Below are positions 8,439-17,844 of a DNA stretch of 32,000 nucleotides, in pieces. Every line of letters starts with the position of its first letter. Position 1 is the first letter of the stretch. The position numbers and the translations under genes were made by a program. Origin of the DNA: Paraburkholderia sp. BCC1886 (GTDB taxonomy: Bacteria; Pseudomonadota; Gammaproteobacteria; Burkholderiales; Burkholderiaceae); assembly GCF_900996245.1 (NCBI RefSeq), contig NZ_CAAJGK010000107.1, forward strand, positions 196,824-228,823, in the 5' to 3' direction. The notes below the pieces were generated by a model. It saw only the letters and a list, made by a program, of their open reading frames with translations. It made no database searches and was not told the DNA's origin.

Positions 8439-9827
8439 ATGAACGCACCGTCCAAAGATCCCCAACTCGAGTCGCTAAAAGTCCCGCCGCATTCGATCGA
8501 GGCCGAGCAATCGGTGCTGGGCGGCCTGCTGCTCGACAACGCGGCATGGGACCGCATCGCCGACTTCCTGTCGCAGAGCGATTTTTATCGCTACGACCAT
8601 CGGCTCATTTACGAACACATCGGCAAGCTGATCGCGGCCACGCGCCCGGCCGACGTGATCACCGTGTACGAGTCGCTCGGCACCGCGGGCAAGGCGGAAG
8701 AGGTCGGCGGGCTCGCCTACCTGAATGCGCTGGCGCAAAACACGCCGAGCGCAGCCAATATCCGCCGTTACGCGGAAATCGTGCGCGATCGTGCCGTGTT
8801 GCGCCGGCTGGTGTCGGTAGCCGACGAGATTTCCGCCGACGCGTTTAATCCGCAGGGCAAGGAAGTGCGCCAGTTGCTGGACGAGGCCGAATCGAAGGTG
8901 TTCTCGATTGCCGAAGACGGCGCGCGCGGCACCCAGGGCTTTCTCGAGATTGGACCGTTGCTGACCCAGGTCGTCGAGCGTATCGACACGCTATATCACA
9001 CGGCTAATCCGAGCGACGTGACCGGCACGCCGACCGGCTTCGTCGATCTGGACCGTATGACGTCCGGCATGCATGGCGGCGAGTTGATCATCGTTGCAGG
9101 GCGTCCGTCGATGGGTAAGACCGCGTTCTCGATGAATGTCGGCGAGTACGTTGCAGTTGAATACGGTTTGCCAGTAGCGGTGTTTTCGATGGAAATGCCC
9201 GGCTCGCAACTGACCATGCGGATGCTCGGCTCGGTTGGCCGGCTCGACCAGCACCGGATGCGAACCGGGCGATTAACCGACGAAGATTGGCCGAAGCTGA
9301 CACATGCCGTGCAGAAGATGAGCGAAGCGCAGATTTTTATCGACGAGACCGGTGGTTTGAATCCGATGGAACTGCGCTCCCGCGCGCGCCGGTTGTCGCG
9401 GCAATGCGGCAAGCTCGGCCTCATCATCATCGATTACCTGCAGTTGATGAGCGGTTCGTCGTCAGCCGGTGAAAACCGGGCGACCGAGATCTCGGAAATC
9501 TCGCGCTCGCTCAAAAGTCTCGCCAAGGAACTCGATGTTCCGGTCATCGCGTTGTCGCAGTTGAATCGTGGACTGGAACAGAGGCCGAACAAGCGGCCGA
9601 TCATGTCGGATCTGCGTGAATCCGGCGCTATCGAGCAGGATGCGGATGTGATCCTGTTCATCTATCGCGACGAAGTCTACAACCCTGATAGCCCCGACAA
9701 AGGCACTGCGGAGATCATCATCGGCAAGCAGCGGAACGGCCCGATCGGCCCTGTTCGACTGACTTTCCATGGTCAATACACGAAGTTCGATAACTTTGCG
9801 GGCGCGCAAAACTTCTACAGCGATTGA
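8439..9827 (+). CDS. dnaB: Replicative DNA helicase DnaB
   Basis: 'PPHSIEAEQSVLGGLLLDN' is the N-terminal domain motif. Walker A is 'GRPSMGKTAF'. Also present are 'IIIDYLQLM' and 'LSQLNRGLEQRPNKRP'. Confidence 0.95.
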   Translation: MNAPSKDPQLESLKVPPHSIEAEQSVLGGLLLDNAAWDRIADFLSQSDFYRYDHRLIYEHIGKLIAATRPADVITVYESLGTAGKAEEVGGLAYLNALAQNTPSAANIRRYAEIVRDRAVLRRLVSVADEISADAFNPQGKEVRQLLDEAESKVFSIAEDGARGTQGFLEIGPLLTQVVERIDTLYHTANPSDVTGTPTGFVDLDRMTSGMHGGELIIVAGRPSMGKTAFSMNVGEYVAVEYGLPVAVFSMEMPGSQLTMRMLGSVGRLDQHRMRTGRLTDEDWPKLTHAVQKMSEAQIFIDETGGLNPMELRSRARRLSRQCGKLGLIIIDYLQLMSGSSSAGENRATEISEISRSLKSLAKELDVPVIALSQLNRGLEQRPNKRPIMSDLRESGAIEQDADVILFIYRDEVYNPDSPDKGTAEIIIGKQRNGPIGPVRLTFHGQYTKFDNFAGAQNFYSD

Positions 9828-10205: not shown

Positions 10206-10722
10206 ATGACATCAAACCTGAAATTCAAGACCGCGCGGGCCAAGCTGGAACCGCGCCGTGCCCCTTACTGGTCCGCCTAAGCTTGGCGTACTTATCGGCT
10301 TCCGAAAGGGGGCAGCAACAGGCGGAACGTGGATCGGTTGCACTCGCGACGCCAGCGGCACGTACCAGTTCACGTCACTGGGAAGCGACGCCACGAAGGA
10401 ATACGACGAAGCCAGCCGGGAAATCGCCAAGTGGGCGGAGGAACTGGCTAAGGGCGTCCAGAACGACCGGAAATTGACGGTTGCCGACGTATGCCGCGCC
10501 TATGTCGCTAATCGCCGGATCGAGAAGGGCGTTACCACGGCATACGACGTTCAGAAGCGCTTTGAGCGATATGTATTCTCGGAGACATGCGCTATCCGCA
10601 AAGGGGAAAAGATGCCCAGCGGACGGAAGAAGCACGTTGAGGCGTTTGTGTATGACCGACGTATTGGAGATATCCCGTTCGCCAAACTTCAGCCGGGCGA
10701 CGTTCAGCAGGATCAACTATGA
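10206..10722 (+). pseudogene. Tyrosine-recombinase (phage-type integrase) N-terminal remnant, frameshifted and 3'-truncated
   Basis: Frame 1 reads 'MTSNLKFKTARAKLEPRRAPYWSA-stop' (to 10280). It continues in another frame as 'KLGVLIGFRKGAATGGTWIGCTRDASGTYQFTSLG...', resembling arm-binding and N-terminal integrase regions. A frameshift lies near 10278 and a stop at 10722. There is no room before 10918 for a catalytic R..HxxR..Y domain. Confidence 0.6.
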
Positions 10723-10744
10723 ATAACCCACAAGAAGCCCTTAA

Positions 10745-10918
10745 AGCAAAAAACTCACTAAGCCTCTGTCTGACGAACTGGTTCGCGTGAACATCGAAGT
10801 CACACCGCAAATGCGCGAAGACCTGAAGGCGTACGTGCGCGCGAATAACGCGACCATCGCCAAGGTATTGCGCGCGATGTTTGAACTTCACCTATATCCG
10901 GAAAATCCGGTGCAGTAA
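10745..10918 (+). other. Short open frame with ribbon-helix-helix-like sequence; possible gene fragment
   Basis: 'KPLSDELVRVNIEVTPQMREDLKAYVRANNATIAKVLRAMFELHL' has a beta-strand/helix/helix pattern typical of CopG/RHH proteins. There is no ATG before 10811; possible starts are GTG 10787 or CTG 10766. It is not in the ORF track because it is under 60 aa. Confidence 0.3.
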
Positions 10919-10940
10919 TGTTCCAGCCCACACGACCGAC

Positions 10941-11291
10941 CTAGTCAGTCTTGGGTATCTTTCGCAAGGGAACGAAATGCTCGCCGTCATAAGCGTTGGT
11001 AACAGCATGTCCGTCACTCTTTCGCATTCGCACGAAAAAGAGTGTTGGTGAAGTATTGGTTGCGCCGCCACATTCCGCTGAATGATTTTCGCGGACGCGC
11101 ACCTCGTAACTCTTGCCTTGGTCGAACGTATCGAAGAAGAGGCATTCGGTCCTGTCCGTCGAGAGCTGATATTTAGTAACCAGCTTTGAGGCTAGTAACG
11201 CTGCTGCATTGTCGTCCGGCACCGCCAGCGGTTTTGCGCAGGCTGACGCGCAGGTAACAAGGAGCGCAACTGCAACCGTCCATCGGGTCAT
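10941..11291 (-). CDS. Small exported protein (signal peptide or lipoprotein), candidate cognate partner/immunity of the upstream GH73 hydrolase
   Basis: The N-terminus 'MTRWTVAVALLVTCASACAKP' is a signal peptide with possible lipobox Cys. Its ATG overlaps the stop of the GH73 gene (ATGA at 11288-11291). I recognise no domain. Confidence 0.6.
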   Translation of the reverse strand: MTRWTVAVALLVTCASACAKPLAVPDDNAAALLASKLVTKYQLSTDRTECLFFDTFDQGKSYEVRVRENHSAECGGATNTSPTLFFVRMRKSDGHAVTNAYDGEHFVPLRKIPKTD

Positions 11292-11791
11292 TGCGATTGC
11301 CCCGCATCGTACTGGTCGAGATTGTGCGCGCGGATTATGGCATTCAGTTTCGTTGCGTAGTGCTGGTCAGTCGCATAGCCGCCGTGCTGAAGCGCAATAG
11401 CGCACTTGCTGGCACTCCGTTGCGTGTAGCAAACCCGGAATTTCGGGTTGCTGCTGATGGTCCGGGCGTAATCGTCTGCGGCATCATCAAAACCTGTGTA
11501 TGCGCGGAACGTTCCCTGTATCTGTACGGACGCCCCATTCAGAATTTCGTGCGTGGTGAACGTCGCTGAACTTCCGTCCGGTGCGCGCCCCTTCACGCCG
11601 AAATAAGCGTTGCCAACTACGCGGCGTCCCCAGTTCGTTTCCAGCGCAGATTGCGCGAGGACGATTCCCGCCGGGATGCCAAATCGCCGCTGGATCGCTT
11701 GCGCCTTGGCAAGATGATCGGCAATAAACGCGGTTACGTAAGCCGGTGAAGACGGTGCTGCCTTGGATTTATGTGCGTGGTGTTCAGGCAT
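11288..11791 (-). CDS. GH73 family peptidoglycan hydrolase (FlgJ-type N-acetylglucosaminidase domain), no signal peptide
   Basis: 'GIVLAQSALETNWG...NAYFGVKG...FRAYTGFDDAADDYARTISSNPKF...GGYATDQHYATKLNAII' matches the glucosaminidase/GH73 pattern, including the catalytic Glu context. The start is set at the ATG at 11791 ('MPEHHAHK'), giving 167 aa. Confidence 0.8.
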   Translation of the reverse strand: MPEHHAHKSKAAPSSPAYVTAFIADHLAKAQAIQRRFGIPAGIVLAQSALETNWGRRVVGNAYFGVKGRAPDGSSATFTTHEILNGASVQIQGTFRAYTGFDDAADDYARTISSNPKFRVCYTQRSASKCAIALQHGGYATDQHYATKLNAIIRAHNLDQYDAGQSQ

Positions 11792-11984
11792 TTGGCAATC
11801 CCACTGAAAGCAAATAATACAAAGACTGTAGCAGAGCGGTTGGTTTGACGAAACTAGGCTAGCGCTCCGTTTCCCCACTTAATGCGTAGTGAATAGCTAG
11901 CCGTGCGGTACCCCAACTACATCCAAATAATTCGCTAAGGTATTTTTTTGGGCAGCTCGAATTCCGTATTTGTTTTATGCCTTG

Positions 11985-12578
11985 TTACCCCCAACAATCA
12001 CAATCTGCGCCGCAGCCTGGGGGCATTGAGCATTCATATGCAACCGGAGGATTGCTTAAATCGGTTGCCTGATACCGAACTCTGCCGCTATCAATTGGAG
12101 GTTCCCACGAATAAATAACTCCTTTGTCACGTTCGTGGCAGTGGTAACAGTGCATGTATTGATTAAATTTTTCATAAAGGAAATCATGAACTATCTGTTT
12201 AGCAAAGAACGAATTGATAGAAAACCACTCGGTTTTCCGGCCCGTACGGGGATGCCTCATCCGCTCATAGTCCCGTTCAATCATTTCATGCACAGCACCT
12301 TCTATTAACTCAATGGTGCTTGGATGTACACCATCCCTGATCTTGAAAGCACATAGCAAGGCATAGTACCGGTTCTGAGTGCCACCGGCTCTTGATCCGG
12401 GCGTGCCAATGGTCCGCCCAATCTTCGCCTCACGATCATTCCGTGTGTCCAATCCGATGTAAATCCAACCAACATTCGAGTTTTCTTGCCGGAGGCGTTC
12501 TCGTTCAACGTGCGCCTCCTTGAGATCATCATAATCGTTCTCGTCGAAGTCGTCTTCCCAATACTTATTTATTGCCAT
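11985..12578 (-). CDS. T5orf172 (GIY-YIG superfamily-like) domain protein with a Cys/His-rich C-terminus
   Basis: 'GWIYIGLD...AKIGRT...IELIEGAVHEMIERDYERM...GRKTEWFSIN' fits the T5orf172/MUG113 pattern. The N-terminus is acidic (WEDDFDENDYDD). The C-terminus reads 'HCYHCHERD...ECSMPPGCGADCDCWG'. The ATG at 12578 is preferred over the GTG at 12599. Confidence 0.65.
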   Translation of the reverse strand: MAINKYWEDDFDENDYDDLKEAHVERERLRQENSNVGWIYIGLDTRNDREAKIGRTIGTPGSRAGGTQNRYYALLCAFKIRDGVHPSTIELIEGAVHEMIERDYERMRHPRTGRKTEWFSINSFFAKQIVHDFLYEKFNQYMHCYHCHERDKGVIYSWEPPIDSGRVRYQATDLSNPPVAYECSMPPGCGADCDCWG

Positions 12579-12870
12579 TTCGATACCCCAGATTGACACG
12601 GCATATTATATCGAATGAGTTGATTATGTGAGGCTGGGACGCCCAAATGGAACATCTCTCTGGTAACTATGATCCTCGCCTTGGGCGGAAACTAAACTTT
12701 TGATTTTATACAATAATTTTAGTGTTCAAATTTTTCCAAGGCAAGCAAAGCGCCGGTTTGCTCAAATTTTTCGGGTGACCTCTAAAGAAATGGTCTCATG
12801 TTGCCGTAATGTCGGTGGGGCCAGCAGGTTCATTCAATCAACGAAAAATATTGAGATAACGAGGGAACGC

Positions 12871-13956
12871 ATGGAAGTTATGAACGGAACTACTCCGCGA
12901 ACCACAGTGCACGCAATCGGGGACCACGCTCTTCACCGCAATTTACATCAAGCGCAGACCCGTTCTGCTTTTGCCGCGTACCTACTCTGGTTTTTCCTTG
13001 GCTCTGTCGGTGCACACCTGATGTACACGCGCCGCTGGGTCATGCTCACCGCCCATTACCTGTTACTGATTCTGGTAGGTTTCGGTATTGGAATGGTCGT
13101 GCACGGTAAAGAAATTCAAAACGTATTCTTCGGATTGGCAGCAGTATGGGGCGCAATTCTGCCGTTCGGAATCTTTAGCTTCCTCGGCATGTGTATCTTG
13201 TTTGCGCAGGTGAATTACTGCAACGAAGATTCTGCGTTGCGGCTGGCTGGAATCAAGCCGAAGCTCACGCGCGTGACTGAGCGTCTAGTTATCATCGTGT
13301 CAGTCGGTGTTTTTCTGATGTTCGCTGTGATCATGTCGTATTTTCCGGACGCTGTTGTTCGAGACAGTGTGTCCACGACGCCTGACACTGTTACGGCTCC
13401 TTCGGCACAGACACCTTCGGTGCAACCATCGAGTCCTGAGGTCAGCAGCGCGCCTGCCGCGAACGTCGAGCAGGGTAATGTTCAACCCCAAGCAACTGTG
13501 GCAGAAGCGACTTCACAAGTAGCGGCGGTGGCAGAGGCAGCGCCAGCACAAGACCAGCAAGCACCGGCACTGGCACCGGCACAGCCTACGCAGGACAGCG
13601 CTACTCAATCGTTAGACCCTGCTACGGATTTGAACACAACGCCAAATCAGATGTATGGAACAAGTTTCGATTGCGGCAAAAGCCACTCACAGAATGAGTA
13701 TCTGATTTGCCACACGCCGGCACTTGCTATCGCAGACGTGAAGCTTGCTAACTCGGTAACTGCAGCTAAAAACGCAATTGCTCCGACAGACTTGGATGCT
13801 TTCAAGGATCGGATGCGTGGACAATGGAACTTCCGAGAAAAGCACTGCAATGATGTCGCTTGCTTGAATACGTGGTACCAGTATCAAACTAGTACGATGG
13901 CACTCATTGAACAAACCCGGAACGCGGCGGCTCGCGTGGATACTCCACAAAACTGA
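12871..13956 (+). CDS. Multi-pass membrane protein: N-terminal TM2 domain, Pro/Ala/Gln-rich linker, C-terminal LprI/DUF1311-like Cys domain
   Basis: The TM2 motif is 'AAYLLWFFLGSVGAHLMYTRRW'. There are 4-5 hydrophobic helices and a low-complexity linker (APSAQTPSVQPSSPEVSSAPA...). The C-terminal domain reads 'SFDCGKSHSQNEYLICHTPALAIADVKLA...RMRGQWNFREKHCNDVAC'. The start is at ATG 12871, after the RBS GAGGGA. Confidence 0.65.
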   Translation: MEVMNGTTPRTTVHAIGDHALHRNLHQAQTRSAFAAYLLWFFLGSVGAHLMYTRRWVMLTAHYLLLILVGFGIGMVVHGKEIQNVFFGLAAVWGAILPFGIFSFLGMCILFAQVNYCNEDSALRLAGIKPKLTRVTERLVIIVSVGVFLMFAVIMSYFPDAVVRDSVSTTPDTVTAPSAQTPSVQPSSPEVSSAPAANVEQGNVQPQATVAEATSQVAAVAEAAPAQDQQAPALAPAQPTQDSATQSLDPATDLNTTPNQMYGTSFDCGKSHSQNEYLICHTPALAIADVKLANSVTAAKNAIAPTDLDAFKDRMRGQWNFREKHCNDVACLNTWYQYQTSTMALIEQTRNAAARVDTPQN

Positions 13957-13985
13957 TCGTCAATCAGAGTTAGCGAAAGGCGGAC

Positions 13986-14528
13986 ATGCACACCATATTC
14001 CGGCAGGGACCCACAACGGGAGTCAGTCTAGGGCTTTATGATTTTGAAAGAGATTTCAAAAATCTATGTCACCAGCACATGCGGGAGAAACGCGCGCGGG
14101 CCTTCGCCTTCATTTTTTACAATATGAGCGATGGGCCGGTCCGAAAAGCTTTGAAGGCGGATGGATTCAAGGTGTTAAACGCCGCCTCCGGCAAAGACGT
14201 CACCATATATTATTTGCACGAAGGTGCTGAATTCCAGATGAATCAATTCAATCGGCAATTTCTGCGAGTCTTAAACATCAGGGAGCAAGCTTCGCCTCCG
14301 TGTATGGCGTTCTTTCGCGTGAGTGGCGAGTCTATCGAAGACGTTGATATAAAAACCATTGAGCCTAGCTTGCTTGATTCGCACATAATTGTGCAGCAAA
14401 TGGAGCAGCACATACGCGACTATATAAAAGCGTTGAACAGCGAAGGCGATCTGACGGGCATAACTCCTGTTCCGCTTCCGGCTCTGTTCAGGTTGATGGG
14501 GATGATGAGTCGCGCCACTCCGTACTGA
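13986..14528 (+). CDS. Hypothetical protein (180 aa), probably co-transcribed with the TM2/LprI-like gene
   Basis: The ORF lies 29 nt downstream of the previous stop, with an AAAGG RBS. I recognise no domain. It is followed by a hairpin. Confidence 0.55.
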   Translation: MHTIFRQGPTTGVSLGLYDFERDFKNLCHQHMREKRARAFAFIFYNMSDGPVRKALKADGFKVLNAASGKDVTIYYLHEGAEFQMNQFNRQFLRVLNIREQASPPCMAFFRVSGESIEDVDIKTIEPSLLDSHIIVQQMEQHIRDYIKALNSEGDLTGITPVPLPALFRLMGMMSRATPY

Positions 14529-15702: not shown

Positions 15703-16344
15703 ATGAAACCGAGGCTGGCCTCAGAGGTTTGGGACGAGATTCGCGCGCGTGATCCTCTTCGCGACTTTTATAGCCGCTGGGATACGGTGGACGAATCCGA
15801 CATTGACGCCTTGAGTGATGCGCTGGATTCGGCTACGCGTGAAGAAGATATCCAGCAGTTCCTTCAGGCCAACCCCAAATACCTAATTCAACATCTTGGC
15901 GGGGGACATGGCCGTTGGATCATTCCGAAGCAGCGCCTTGGCGTGCAGCATGTGACGGACTTTATGATCGGAGAACGGGATTCAATGGGTTTCCGCTGGC
16001 AAGCGGTGGAGCTTGAAAGTCCATTGGCAAAGATGTTTACGAAGTCTGGCAATCCGTCTGCCCCTCTAACTCACGCGATCCGCCAGATACAGGACTGGCG
16101 CATGTGGCTCGCGGTGAATCAAAATTACGCTGCACGCGACAGGGGCGAAGACGGCCTAGGCCTCACGGAGATTCATCCGGACGTGCAAGGGTTGATTATC
16201 ATGGGGCGGCGGGCGACAGAGTCTGAAGATACTCGGCGGCTTCGTCGGCAGATAGGGCGCGATAGCAAGATTGAGATTCACACGTTTGATTATCTTATTG
16301 AATCGCTTATTGGACGTGTGAAAAGTCTCAAAAAGTCACTGTAA
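15703..16344 (+). CDS. Short DUF4263 / Shedu (SduA)-like PD-(D/E)xK nuclease-fold protein
   Basis: By-eye match to the DUF4263 pattern: 'EEDIQQFLQANPKYLI', 'HVTDFMIG...WQAVELESPLAKMFTKSGNPSAPLTHAIRQIQDW' and 'GLIIMGRR...IEIHTFDYLIE'. The usual E-x-K reads E-L-E here. Confidence 0.6.
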   Translation: MKPRLASEVWDEIRARDPLRDFYSRWDTVDESDIDALSDALDSATREEDIQQFLQANPKYLIQHLGGGHGRWIIPKQRLGVQHVTDFMIGERDSMGFRWQAVELESPLAKMFTKSGNPSAPLTHAIRQIQDWRMWLAVNQNYAARDRGEDGLGLTEIHPDVQGLIIMGRRATESEDTRRLRRQIGRDSKIEIHTFDYLIESLIGRVKSLKKSL

Positions 16345-16352
16345 CAATACCT

Positions 16353-17480
16353 CTAGAACGGAATGTCGTCGTCCATGAACGGGGGGGGTTGGGTATGGCG
16401 CGGCATTGCGTCAAATCGGCTGTGCAGATTTGCGATAATGATTTCTTGCTTTTCGCGTGAGGCCTTCCTGAAAAGCGTAAGAAAATTTTTCAAAGTATTG
16501 ACTTCGAAATTAGCGCGTTTGCTGTATTTATATGCCCCATTAATAAAGCAGCTTGAAATGGCTGTCGGATTGGGTAGGAAATCTTCAAGCCTTACCTTGC
16601 GATAAATTTCCTCAAGTTTGGTTGCTATGACCGAGGCCGGAGAATGGTATTTTGCGTCTGCCTCAATGGATCTCAGTAGATTGGAGAGGCTATCTGCAAA
16701 TTCAAGATAGCTGTTCCGCTCGCCAGATGAGAAATCGCTGTCAAAATCTGTGGCAAGAATCGCACTTTTCGCTTCGGAGAATGAGCCAATTCGTCCATTC
16801 GGCTCAATCCGGCACATACAATCTAAAAGATCGCCGTGCTTGAACGCTTCAATATGCAGCTCCCGGATGATTTTCTCGAATAGTTTTCCGACAAAGTAGA
16901 CTTCGGTGCGAAAGTCATAAATCGATTCTTTGAATTCGTTGGGTAAGTCGCACCACCAATTCAAGGAAATGCTTTTGTTGTAGTCGCCATCTGAGGTTGC
17001 TTGCTTCCCAAATCCAAAATCTATTATTTTGACGACGTTGCCGGAAGTGATGAGAATGTTGCTTTCCCGGATATCGCGGTGCAATATTCCATTTTTCTCA
17101 AGATAGGCGAAACCATCTATTGTTTGTGTGAAAATATCGTTAATGTTATCTGATGATATGAGTAAGTGCGTTCCAATATCCATGCCGCTCACGTATTCCA
17201 TCAAAATATAGCCAGTATTTTGCTTGGGAAAGAGGTGATAATTGAACACCCGCACGATATTCGGATGATTCAGTAGATGGAGTAGTTTTATCTCTCGGAC
17301 GAAGAGGTCAAAGAATTGAGGGGCGTGTTCTGAATTCGCCGGTTCGTATTTTTTGCAGGCGAAGCGCTCGTTGATAACCGGATCGTGAAGTAGAACGGTG
17401 TTGCCCGTTGCGCCTTGGCCAAGGCGTTTTTCTAGCACGAAATCCTTTTGCCGCACAAATTTGACCACTTGGTTATCCAT
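16353..17480 (-). CDS. Hanks-type Ser/Thr protein kinase with an uncharacterised C-terminal domain and an SSB-like acidic C-terminal tip
   Basis: Kinase motifs present: G-loop 'LGQGATGNTV', 'FACKKY', alphaC 'FVREIKLL', catalytic loop 'HRDIRESN', and 'DFGFG'. The final residues are 'PPPFMDDDIPF-stop', verified codon by codon at 16353-16388. The ATG at 17480 ('MDNQVV') is preferred. The gene is very AT-rich. Confidence 0.85.
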   Translation of the reverse strand: MDNQVVKFVRQKDFVLEKRLGQGATGNTVLLHDPVINERFACKKYEPANSEHAPQFFDLFVREIKLLHLLNHPNIVRVFNYHLFPKQNTGYILMEYVSGMDIGTHLLISSDNINDIFTQTIDGFAYLEKNGILHRDIRESNILITSGNVVKIIDFGFGKQATSDGDYNKSISLNWWCDLPNEFKESIYDFRTEVYFVGKLFEKIIRELHIEAFKHGDLLDCMCRIEPNGRIGSFSEAKSAILATDFDSDFSSGERNSYLEFADSLSNLLRSIEADAKYHSPASVIATKLEEIYRKVRLEDFLPNPTAISSCFINGAYKYSKRANFEVNTLKNFLTLFRKASREKQEIIIANLHSRFDAMPRHTQPPPFMDDDIPF

Positions 17481-17844
17481 CTTCAGCACCCCCCGCCTCA
17501 ATACACATGTTATCCGGGTATTATCCGCTGGTTTGGCCCTAATGTGTCAGGCTCACATAGCTGCTGTCAGTACCATTGAAAGCCGGGCGAAGGTCAGTCG
17601 TGCCCGCTCCGCGCCTTGTCAGTGCTCTTTGCGTGGGAAGCATCGAAACGGTCTGCGAGAGGGCTAGCAGTTGCGGGGCGCGGGCTTCGCGCGACTAGCT
17701 GTCTTGCGCTATCAAACCCTTGCTGGCGACTGCGGCCGATGGCTAGTCAGAATTATCTAAAATGACCTGACTCCAGTCCGAAGATGGTTGGAGTGTCCGG
17801 ATTGCCTGTGAGGCTTTAGACAGGCCAGTCGATGACGAAACGAA

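Follow-up and report, generated by a model that had tools for sequence, protein, structure and literature searches.

The window considered here, i.e. the whole 32,000-nucleotide (nt) stretch of Paraburkholderia sp. BCC1886 DNA that was analyzed, encodes on its minus strand a Hanks-type protein kinase whose C-terminus reproduces the acidic tip of SSB, the bacterial single-stranded DNA-binding protein. In SSB this tip is a docking peptide for at least 17 genome-maintenance partners, which are bound via the carboxylate of the terminal Phe and the acidic residues (PMC10018359, PMC7145534, PMC5872125). A preliminary description of this DNA had reported a kinase ending in such a tip, and a direct reading of the open reading frame (ORF) at 16353-17480 on the minus strand bears this out, with the frame closing in MDDDIPF-stop. 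As a general reading, we propose that the tip is a mimic of that of SSB, which probably docks the effector on SSB-tip-binding proteins in a defense role. The parts of the gene are the following:

16353..17480, minus strand: whole gene, coding for a 375-aa protein with the order kinase, C-terminal domain (CTD), tether and SSB tip (ORF and translation; stop codon at 16353-16355)
16746..17453, minus strand: Hanks-type protein kinase domain, residues ~10-245 (Pfam Pkinase, conserved motifs and AlphaFold2 (AF2) per-residue confidence (pLDDT) of 76-92)
17394-17423, minus strand: G-loop LGQGATGNTV, residues 20-29 (sequence motif)
17058-17081, minus strand: catalytic loop HRDIRESN, residues 134-141 (sequence motif)
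17013-17021, minus strand: DFG, residues 154-156 (sequence motif)
16395..16745, minus strand: CTD, residues 246-362, 117 aa, predicted as compact α/β (CTD-only AF2 model, pLDDT 85.7)
16377..16394, minus strand: flexible tether TQPPPF, residues 363-368 (sequence and length differ among family members)
16356..16376, minus strand: mimic of the SSB C-terminal tip, MDDDIPF-COOH, residues 369-375 (the same seven residues end Burkholderiaceae-type SSB)

The ORF spans 16353..17501 on the minus strand, where the ATG at 17480 yields the 375-aa product and a TTG at 17501 constitutes an alternative start. A protein of Paraburkholderia sp. BCC1886 annotated at NCBI as 'protein kinase family protein' (P0001) is 100% identical to it and of equal length. 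The C-terminus reads ...HTQPPPFMDDDIPF, followed by a TAG stop. The N-terminal part is a clear member of the Hanks-type kinases: Pfam Pkinase is recovered over residues 15-199 with E=9e-32 and 110.9 bits against a gathering cut-off of 31.7. The motifs given in the preliminary description (LGQGATGNTV, FACKK, HRDIRESN and DFG) are all present, with FACKK at residues 40-44 supplying the Lys residues 43/44. The Hanks catalytic set is complete, comprising G21/G23/G26, K43/K44, the αC Glu E63, H134-R135-D136, N141 and D154-F-G156, and is invariant or nearly so across 36 diverse homologs, with G23, K43, K44, E63, H134, R135, D136, R138, N141, D154 and G156 strictly invariant. With its catalytic motifs thus intact, the domain is predicted to be catalytically competent. 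An Arg, invariant in the close family, replaces the usual Lys of the catalytic loop (HRDIR); this had been described as reminiscent of Tyr-kinase loops, yet relatives with the canonical HRDLKPxN bear the same CTD and tip, and the Arg therefore tells little about Tyr specificity. The activation segment (residues 168-183) is peculiar in displaying an invariant K-S-I-S-L-N-W-W-C...P-x-[E/D]-F motif where the P+1/APE region is usual. Downstream of the kinase core, the ~170 aa of helical sequence described earlier resolve differently in the AF2 models and the alignment: the C-lobe extends to about residue 245, and is followed by the 117-aa α/β CTD and a 13-residue disordered tail.

The conservation of the tip was followed in three sets. 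The close homologs are the 120 best hits (50-100% identity) from a search of 5.8 billion proteins, and form a tight full-length family drawn from Burkholderiales, Gallionella, Acidobacteria, Chrysiogenes, Melainabacteria, Thiodiazotropha and others. The genome set, which covered 185,579 species by a single genome each, gave 170 carriers, for which 80 loci were fetched (L001-L080). For the third set, the CTD alone was used as the HMMER query in a scan of the whole library, which produced 252 clusters at 50% identity, with the ends of the best 150 representatives being examined. The preliminary description had named a tail that is missing or variable in homologs as the finding that would mark the match as fortuitous; the survey found the reverse. 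An acidic-[I/V/L]-P-F end is present in all 120 best hits, being exactly DDDIPF in 69 and usually preceded by F, as in Escherichia coli SSB. The tip is likewise kept in 78/80 fetched loci, and in the remaining two, which are frameshifted copies, it is still encoded. In these two (L029 8001-9125 and L035 8001-9121) the gene is split by an apparent frameshift, with the downstream ORF keeping the tip; they are either decaying copies or assembly errors of metagenome-assembled genomes (MAGs). Among the best 150 CTD-only relatives, with identity down to ~27%, 136 have [ILVM]PF at the very end.

The information content of the alignment is 4.3, 4.3, 3.8, 3.8, 3.3 and 2.6 bits at positions -1 to -6, compared to 0.4-1.0 bit at the linker positions -8 to -16. 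The terminal Pro and Phe are invariant in 79/79 genes, whereas their codons vary over the full set of four for Pro and two for Phe; hence, selection acts on the peptide. Judged from these alignments, the tip is more than a chance match, and nothing else in the C-terminal third of these proteins is conserved as strongly. This evidence leaves next to no room for the explanation that the tail is a fortuitous or neutral match, or stems from an ssb fragment joined to the gene recently. Although GC content is higher over the window gene's last 25 codons than in the rest (0.59 versus 0.35-0.51), which could hint at a foreign origin of the tail, it is kept in more than 250 sequence clusters, to ~27% identity and through synonymous codon turnover, is accompanied by neither an OB-fold nor an SSB linker, and uses codons that differ among loci, so that it is not a recent DNA copy. 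We accordingly consider this explanation refuted by the homolog survey. Those last 25 codons (16353-16430) have a GC content of 0.72 at third positions. Over 17 nt, the tail codons ATGGACGACGACATTCC coincide with the 3' terminus of ssb from a Burkholderia phage, a stretch too short to tell recombination from codon constraint; a recent copy of the 3' end of ssb was also considered as the source of the tail and rejected, given the differing codons and a similarity to the phage ssb that is no more than the shared peptide demands.

Beyond its conservation, the tip appears to be matched to lineage-specific tips of SSB. The comparison was made at the level of lineages, with published SSB tips and those of phage SSB seeds and their relatives; phage SSBs were taken as seeds in place of E. 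coli SSB, which as a query against plasmid records returned enterobacterial hits only. On the SSB side, DLPF has been noted in two Flavobacteriia, DIPF in γ-proteobacteria and DVPF in Desulfotalea (PMC3991886). DDLPF is also the end of the SSB of a Flavobacterium phage, and of the 120 relatives of this SSB, 69 show DDLPF and 101 LPF. On the kinase side, DDLPF is the Bacteroidota form: all 20 kinases of the Bacteroidota clade end in LPF, as do members from Ignavibacteria, Chlorobiales and Zixibacteria. IPF is mostly found in proteobacterial and acidobacterial kinases, and VPF in those of Desulfovibrionales. One fragment ends in DDEPPF, i.e. the mycobacterial SSB tip. The correspondence extends further upstream in the Burkholderiaceae. 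A Burkholderia phage SSB terminates in GGGFDEMDDDIPF, and MDDDIPF ends 90/120 Burkholderiaceae-type SSBs, many of them on multi-megabase chromosomal contigs. The same Met at -7 (MDDDIPF or close variants) occurs in the window kinase and 14 related kinases; all seven of these with an organism name are from Burkholderiales, and most other lineages have Phe at this position. The kinases of L038 and L078 end in GGFDDMDDDIPF, a 12-residue identity with SSB tails, and those of L040 and P0117 share the last 10 residues of that tail (GFDDMDDDIPF). Two carriers are unusual in their assigned hosts. A 'Fluviicola' MAG (L012, 1.7-kb contig) has the β-proteobacterial-type tip MDDDIPF, not the DDLPF of Bacteroidota, and is probably misbinned. 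A 'Halobacteria archaeon' MAG (L010, 6-kb contig) has the tip DDEVPF, this archaeal carrier reflecting either misbinning or cross-domain transfer.

The pattern of conservation within the tip also bears on whether the [I/L]PF end might instead be a protease degron, holding a toxic effector at a low level until proteolysis is perturbed. LPF alone suffices to send GFP to ClpXP in Streptococcus mutans UA159, with a precedent in the LPF of SsbA in some S. mutans strains (PMC5143411), the SSB tail contacts ClpX in mycobacteria (PMC7847540), and strict invariance in the kinases is limited to P-F and the hydrophobic residue before it. However, such recognition is strain-specific, being absent in E. 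coli and other streptococci (PMC5143411), and the mycobacterial SSB tail activates ClpX, with SSB itself not being degraded (PMC7847540). Moreover, conservation takes in the acidic residues at -4 to -6 as well as lineage-specific ones reaching to -7 or -12, which fits the pockets of SSB partners over a three-residue degron. We therefore hold a degradation tag to be very unlikely.

The tip does not travel alone: CTD and tip always occur together, and form a conserved unit found in five arrangements, of which the HRDIR kinase in front is one. In others the unit stands behind a different kinase clade with the canonical HRDLKPxN and a 140-aa N-terminal domain without assignment (P0194, P0220), behind kinases with an extra DnaG-type CHC2 zinc ribbon, or behind kinases with an extra AbiJ_NTD5 domain. 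In the fifth the kinase is absent and a PIN_12 nuclease precedes the CTD and an [I/M]PF tip (P0226, P0265/P0272 and probably P0216). One such form was located as follows:

L081-L084, 8001-9314: PIN_12 form P0265/P0272

The PIN form P0272 is a full-length gene, and the contigs reach up to 542 kb. The PIN_12 relatives come from human-gut and other metagenomes, where they too are solitary genes. N-terminal additions, in the shape of the CHC2 zinc ribbon, AbiJ_NTD5 or ~140-aa domains without a match, were noted in P0151, P0171, P0195, P0194, P0220, P0185 and P0247.

The CTD itself has no sequence match in Pfam, NCBIfam or PDB, and its model has no Foldseek match at E<0.5 in PDB or BFVD. As modeled, it is thus a newly defined domain with no known fold relative in these two structure collections. 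It is not basic overall (median pI ~7, median net charge 0), and a role as a basic DNA-binding domain was ruled out on account of this net charge of about zero. In the full-length AF2 model the mean pLDDT drops to 60 over residues 361-370 and below 50 from residue 368, such that the tail is predicted to be disordered and exposed; neither the full-length nor the CTD-only model docks it with confidence on its own protein.

These properties have to be set against a different explanation for the constant pairing, namely that the tip is an autoinhibitory pseudo-ligand. Here the CTD would be an SSB-tip receptor with the protein's own tip bound in cis, or in trans in head-to-tail oligomers, thereby keeping the effector off; during infection, as single-stranded DNA (ssDNA) accumulates, the densely arrayed tips of host or phage SSB on it would displace the protein's own tip and turn the kinase or PIN domain on. 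Such an arrangement would account for CTD and tip never being separated and for the length of the tether, which varies across the family at about 5-15 residues versus the ~56-residue linker of SSB (PMC7145534). The CTD also has conserved basic or polar residues (K277, R338, K344, R361) of the kind that line SSB-tip pockets, the last four residues of its CTD-only model lie outside the segment with pLDDT<50, and SSB-coated ssDNA or phage SSB is known to trigger DARNA, Retron-Eco8 and Hna. A tip that follows the host SSB is equally predicted by it. Against this, confident docking is absent from the AF2 models, in which residues 368-375 fall below a pLDDT of 50 at full length and the last block of the CTD-only model averages 53; the domain has a median charge of zero; and Foldseek finds no fold similarity of the CTD to any known SSB-tip-binding domain. 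On balance, autoinhibition seems unlikely to us.

The family is sporadic: its 170 carriers make up ~0.09% of the 185,579 species and are spread over more than 10 phyla. The GC content of the gene (0.26-0.57, whatever the host) is below that of the flanks in 73/74 loci, with a median difference of -11 points. Searches of 50,697 phage and 72,556 plasmid records recovered no full-length relative, and 2.9 million IMG/VR contigs yielded one; an origin in phages or plasmids was rejected on these counts. Clustering of the ORFs of the 80 loci by all-versus-all BLAST and phmmer revealed no conserved neighbor outside Burkholderiaceae. The immediate neighbors are housekeeping genes, integrases and some defense genes (SduA, type IV DinG, DpdF, UG/DRT reverse transcriptases, PsyrT and AbiJ_NTD4 proteins). 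A link to MADS via neighbors called as 'mad2' by PADLOC was considered and discarded, these hits being class I SAM methyltransferases and DinB_2+FGE-sulfatase (EgtB-like) or EgtB/D-like genes of the ergothioneine type. Those adjoining the kinase in L005, L027, L028, L054 and L058 exemplify the false defense calls made by that model.

Effector swapping on a constant module, the AbiJ-type domains, the sporadic distribution and the AT-richness are the usual marks of conflict systems. A housekeeping or stress regulator, i.e. an accessory DNA-damage or replication kinase akin to Bacillus subtilis YabT, which is delivered by the tip to SSB partners or competes with SSB, and which tunes repair without being an immune protein, would be compatible with a tip that points towards repair and replication enzymes, with the many copies placed between housekeeping genes and lacking a defense neighbor, and with the DnaG-type zinc ribbon on some relatives. 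Yet such a regulator is hard to reconcile with a presence in only ~0.09% of species scattered across more than 10 phyla, AT-richness relative to the flanks in 73/74 loci, a kinase that is exchangeable for a PIN nuclease, N-terminal AbiJ fusions, occasional frameshifted copies and the lack of a conserved operon partner. Since rarity, AT-richness, effector exchange and the missing operon partner speak for an accessory conflict gene over a core regulator, we rate this role as improbable. On sequence grounds, the gene most likely codes for a self-contained, horizontally mobile conflict-system protein, functioning as a single-gene anti-phage or abortive-infection effector.

In the window, the gene lies in a low-GC island flanked by dnaB on one side and a TIGR00153/Pit pair on the other. 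As the preliminary description had it, the kinase gene is the most AT-rich of the island, with a GC content of 0.445 against 0.60 for the window. dnaB (8439-9827) codes for the replicative helicase, and the island sits directly downstream of it. Apart from the kinase, the genes of the island that could be assigned are:

15703..16344, plus strand: short Shedu nuclease (SduA_C only, 213 aa; Pfam SduA_C E=1.8e-15, PADLOC SduA 3e-23)
11288-11878, minus strand: glucosaminidase-domain protein (low-GC island, window 10258-14528)
11985-12599, minus strand: T5orf172/GIY-YIG-like protein (low-GC island, window 10258-14528)
12700-13956, plus strand: 418-aa TM2-domain protein (low-GC island, window 10258-14528)

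Several further ORFs at 10258-14528 have no family match. The Shedu gene belongs to its family with 57.9 bits for Pfam SduA_C (DUF4263) against a cut-off of 27, and its match to the short-form models PDLC00396/00397 extends over their full length. It is convergent with the kinase gene, the two stop codons being 8 nt apart. The tail-to-tail placement and the Shedu-like identity given in the preliminary description thus hold, while the partnership is confined to a Burkholderiaceae subclade: the pair occurs in five loci of this family (the window (WIN), L001, L002, L003 and L035), where the Shedu proteins are 207-281 aa long, and is absent from the other 76, which argues against a family-wide two-gene system. 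The spacing is -4 to +8 nt in four loci and widens to 315 nt in L035, a locus whose kinase is frameshifted. Kinase and Shedu diverge in parallel (81/85, 62/72 and 59/62% identity); the other flanking genes differ among the five loci as the pair co-diverges. The pair consequently looks like a local, mobile two-gene cassette.

As the family keeps the docking determinants of the SSB tip at its extreme C-terminus and the tip apparently matches the host, binding of the tail to SSB-tip pockets is the most economical inference. In mechanistic terms, the Hanks kinase, or the PIN nuclease that takes its place in some relatives, would be the effector. The tip on its short tether, with acidic residues followed by I/L/V-P-F and a free carboxylate, would work as it does in SSB, inserting into the hydrophobic, basic-rimmed pocket of SSB-tip-binding proteins. 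These may be host proteins, such as ExoI, RecQ, PriA, RecG, RecO, χ and others, or phage proteins that exploit the host SSB. Docking would thereby couple the CTD-effector unit to the ssDNA-processing machinery, where the kinase might phosphorylate docked or nearby proteins, or the PIN domain cleave nearby nucleic acid, with replication or recombination being blocked as a result. The earlier suggestion of a kinase wired to the SSB interactome by tip mimicry is thus well supported at the sequence level by the conserved tip and its apparent lineage match; as for the binding of the tip to such pockets, the anti-phage role and the trigger, these we infer.

A more specific and tentative form of the docking proposal, which we regard as possible but less probable than not, is that CTD and tip are an 'integrated decoy' of the host SSB tail, captured by phage proteins that need the SSB tip. 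The captors would be oligomeric recombinases of the RecT/Red-β/Erf type, or a phage helicase, primase or polymerase accessory factor. Phage tip-binders being multimeric, several kinase molecules would be clustered on them, leading to trans-autophosphorylation of the RD-type kinases (or PIN assembly) and abortive infection, while monomeric host SSB partners would fail to cluster the protein and hence give no trigger. Recruitment to host partners and a decoy that attracts phage SSB-binders are both compatible with the present data, and both fall within the general reading. If true, the decoy would be the first case of immune sensing by imitation of a short linear motif that belongs to the host's replication hub, and would account for the apparent tracking of each host's SSB by the tip.

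Several points weigh against an SSB-tip mimic with a defense role. Constitutive binding of the tip to host SSB partners would need a separate infection signal. The Bacteroidota kinases are one clade, so that phylogeny is in part a confounder of the apparent match between tip and host, and some β-proteobacterial kinases have F, not M, at -7. Once the false 'mad2' hits are excluded, true defense genes are ~9-11 of the 143 immediate neighbors (about 6-8%), a no more than moderate defense context, and many copies are solitary among housekeeping genes. As regards the check proposed in the preliminary description of whether homologs sit in defense islands, some adjoin defense genes, and outside the Burkholderiaceae subclade the gene stands alone.

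The significance of the family stems from the SSB tip being the central recruiting peptide of bacterial genome maintenance. Its conservation on standalone kinases and PIN nucleases with the same adaptor suggests that bacteria have reused this peptide to aim effectors at the replication and recombination machinery. If this is an immune system, mimicry of a host hub motif would be a new principle of sensing or targeting, and, in the case of the decoy, specifically of sensing. The family would also add a class to the kinase-based defenses, whose triggers mostly lack identification; at present such genes are annotated just as 'protein kinase family protein' or by partial PD-T4-6 or mad6 hits. In agreement with the preliminary description, full-text searches of the literature found no kinase or defense protein described with an SSB tip, nor any description of the window kinase family, and no report in the searchable literature of the tip on proteins other than SSBs. 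The protein is best described as a standalone accessory-genome kinase, probably an effector, with an undescribed adaptor module.

With SSB, the family shares an extreme C-terminal acidic-acidic-acidic-[I/L/V]-P-F-COOH on a disordered tether (in the window protein MDDDIPF-stop, with pLDDT <50), the same gradient of conservation, with P-F invariant, then the hydrophobic residue and then the acidic residues, and the same lineage variants, namely MDDDIPF in Burkholderiaceae, DDLPF in Bacteroidota and DDEPPF in actinobacteria. It differs in lacking the OB fold, the tetramerization core and the long Gly/Gln/Pro-rich linker, and in presenting the peptide on an enzyme (kinase or PIN) via another folded domain. 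The window protein has no PF00436 hit, and phmmer with E. coli SSB recovers no ORF of the window or the fetched loci; without an OB fold, the window protein is not an SSB.

Among known kinases, the likeness to mad6, PD-T4-6, PknB and PglW is confined to the kinase domain, with no family model spanning the CTD or tail and with scores short of the family cut-offs. PD-T4-6, a single-gene Ser/Thr-kinase anti-phage system of E. coli (PDLC04039-04062), is similar in being a standalone Hanks-type kinase from accessory genome regions, and its hidden Markov models match the kinase domain (best E=2.4e-26). The match is, however, not full-length: residues ~11-200 align to the first ~160-200 of 292-510 model positions, and no PD-T4-6 model covers the CTD or SSB tip. 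For MAD6 (MADS) and PglW (BREX), mad6 is the best PADLOC hit (E=2e-32) and NCBIfam antiphage_MADS6 gives 2e-19, both over the kinase domain only; the latter reaches 69.4 bits against a cut-off of 460, placing the protein outside MADS6. Moreover, MAD6 and PglW belong to multigene systems, and MADS or BREX partners were not found near the window kinase.

Two other bacterial kinases offer parallels by description only. Stk2 of Staphylococcus is a eukaryote-like kinase that is activated by the phage protein PacK and phosphorylates host and phage proteins, resulting in abortive infection. The logic proposed here is comparable, i.e. an infection-switched kinase that halts replication, but Stk2 lacks a tail of the SSB-tip type, and PacK, which triggers it, bears no relation to SSB. 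YabT of B. subtilis, a Hanks kinase that ssDNA activates and whose targets are RecA and other proteins of DNA metabolism, is a bacterial kinase tied functionally to ssDNA metabolism; in contrast to the window kinase, it is anchored in the membrane, binds directly to DNA, is inherited vertically and is devoid of an SSB tip. Finally, Retron-Eco8, DARNA and Hna, with which the window protein has no component in common, sense infection at the SSB/ssDNA node, as the window protein might; whereas those systems recognize SSB, the window protein displays the SSB peptide itself.

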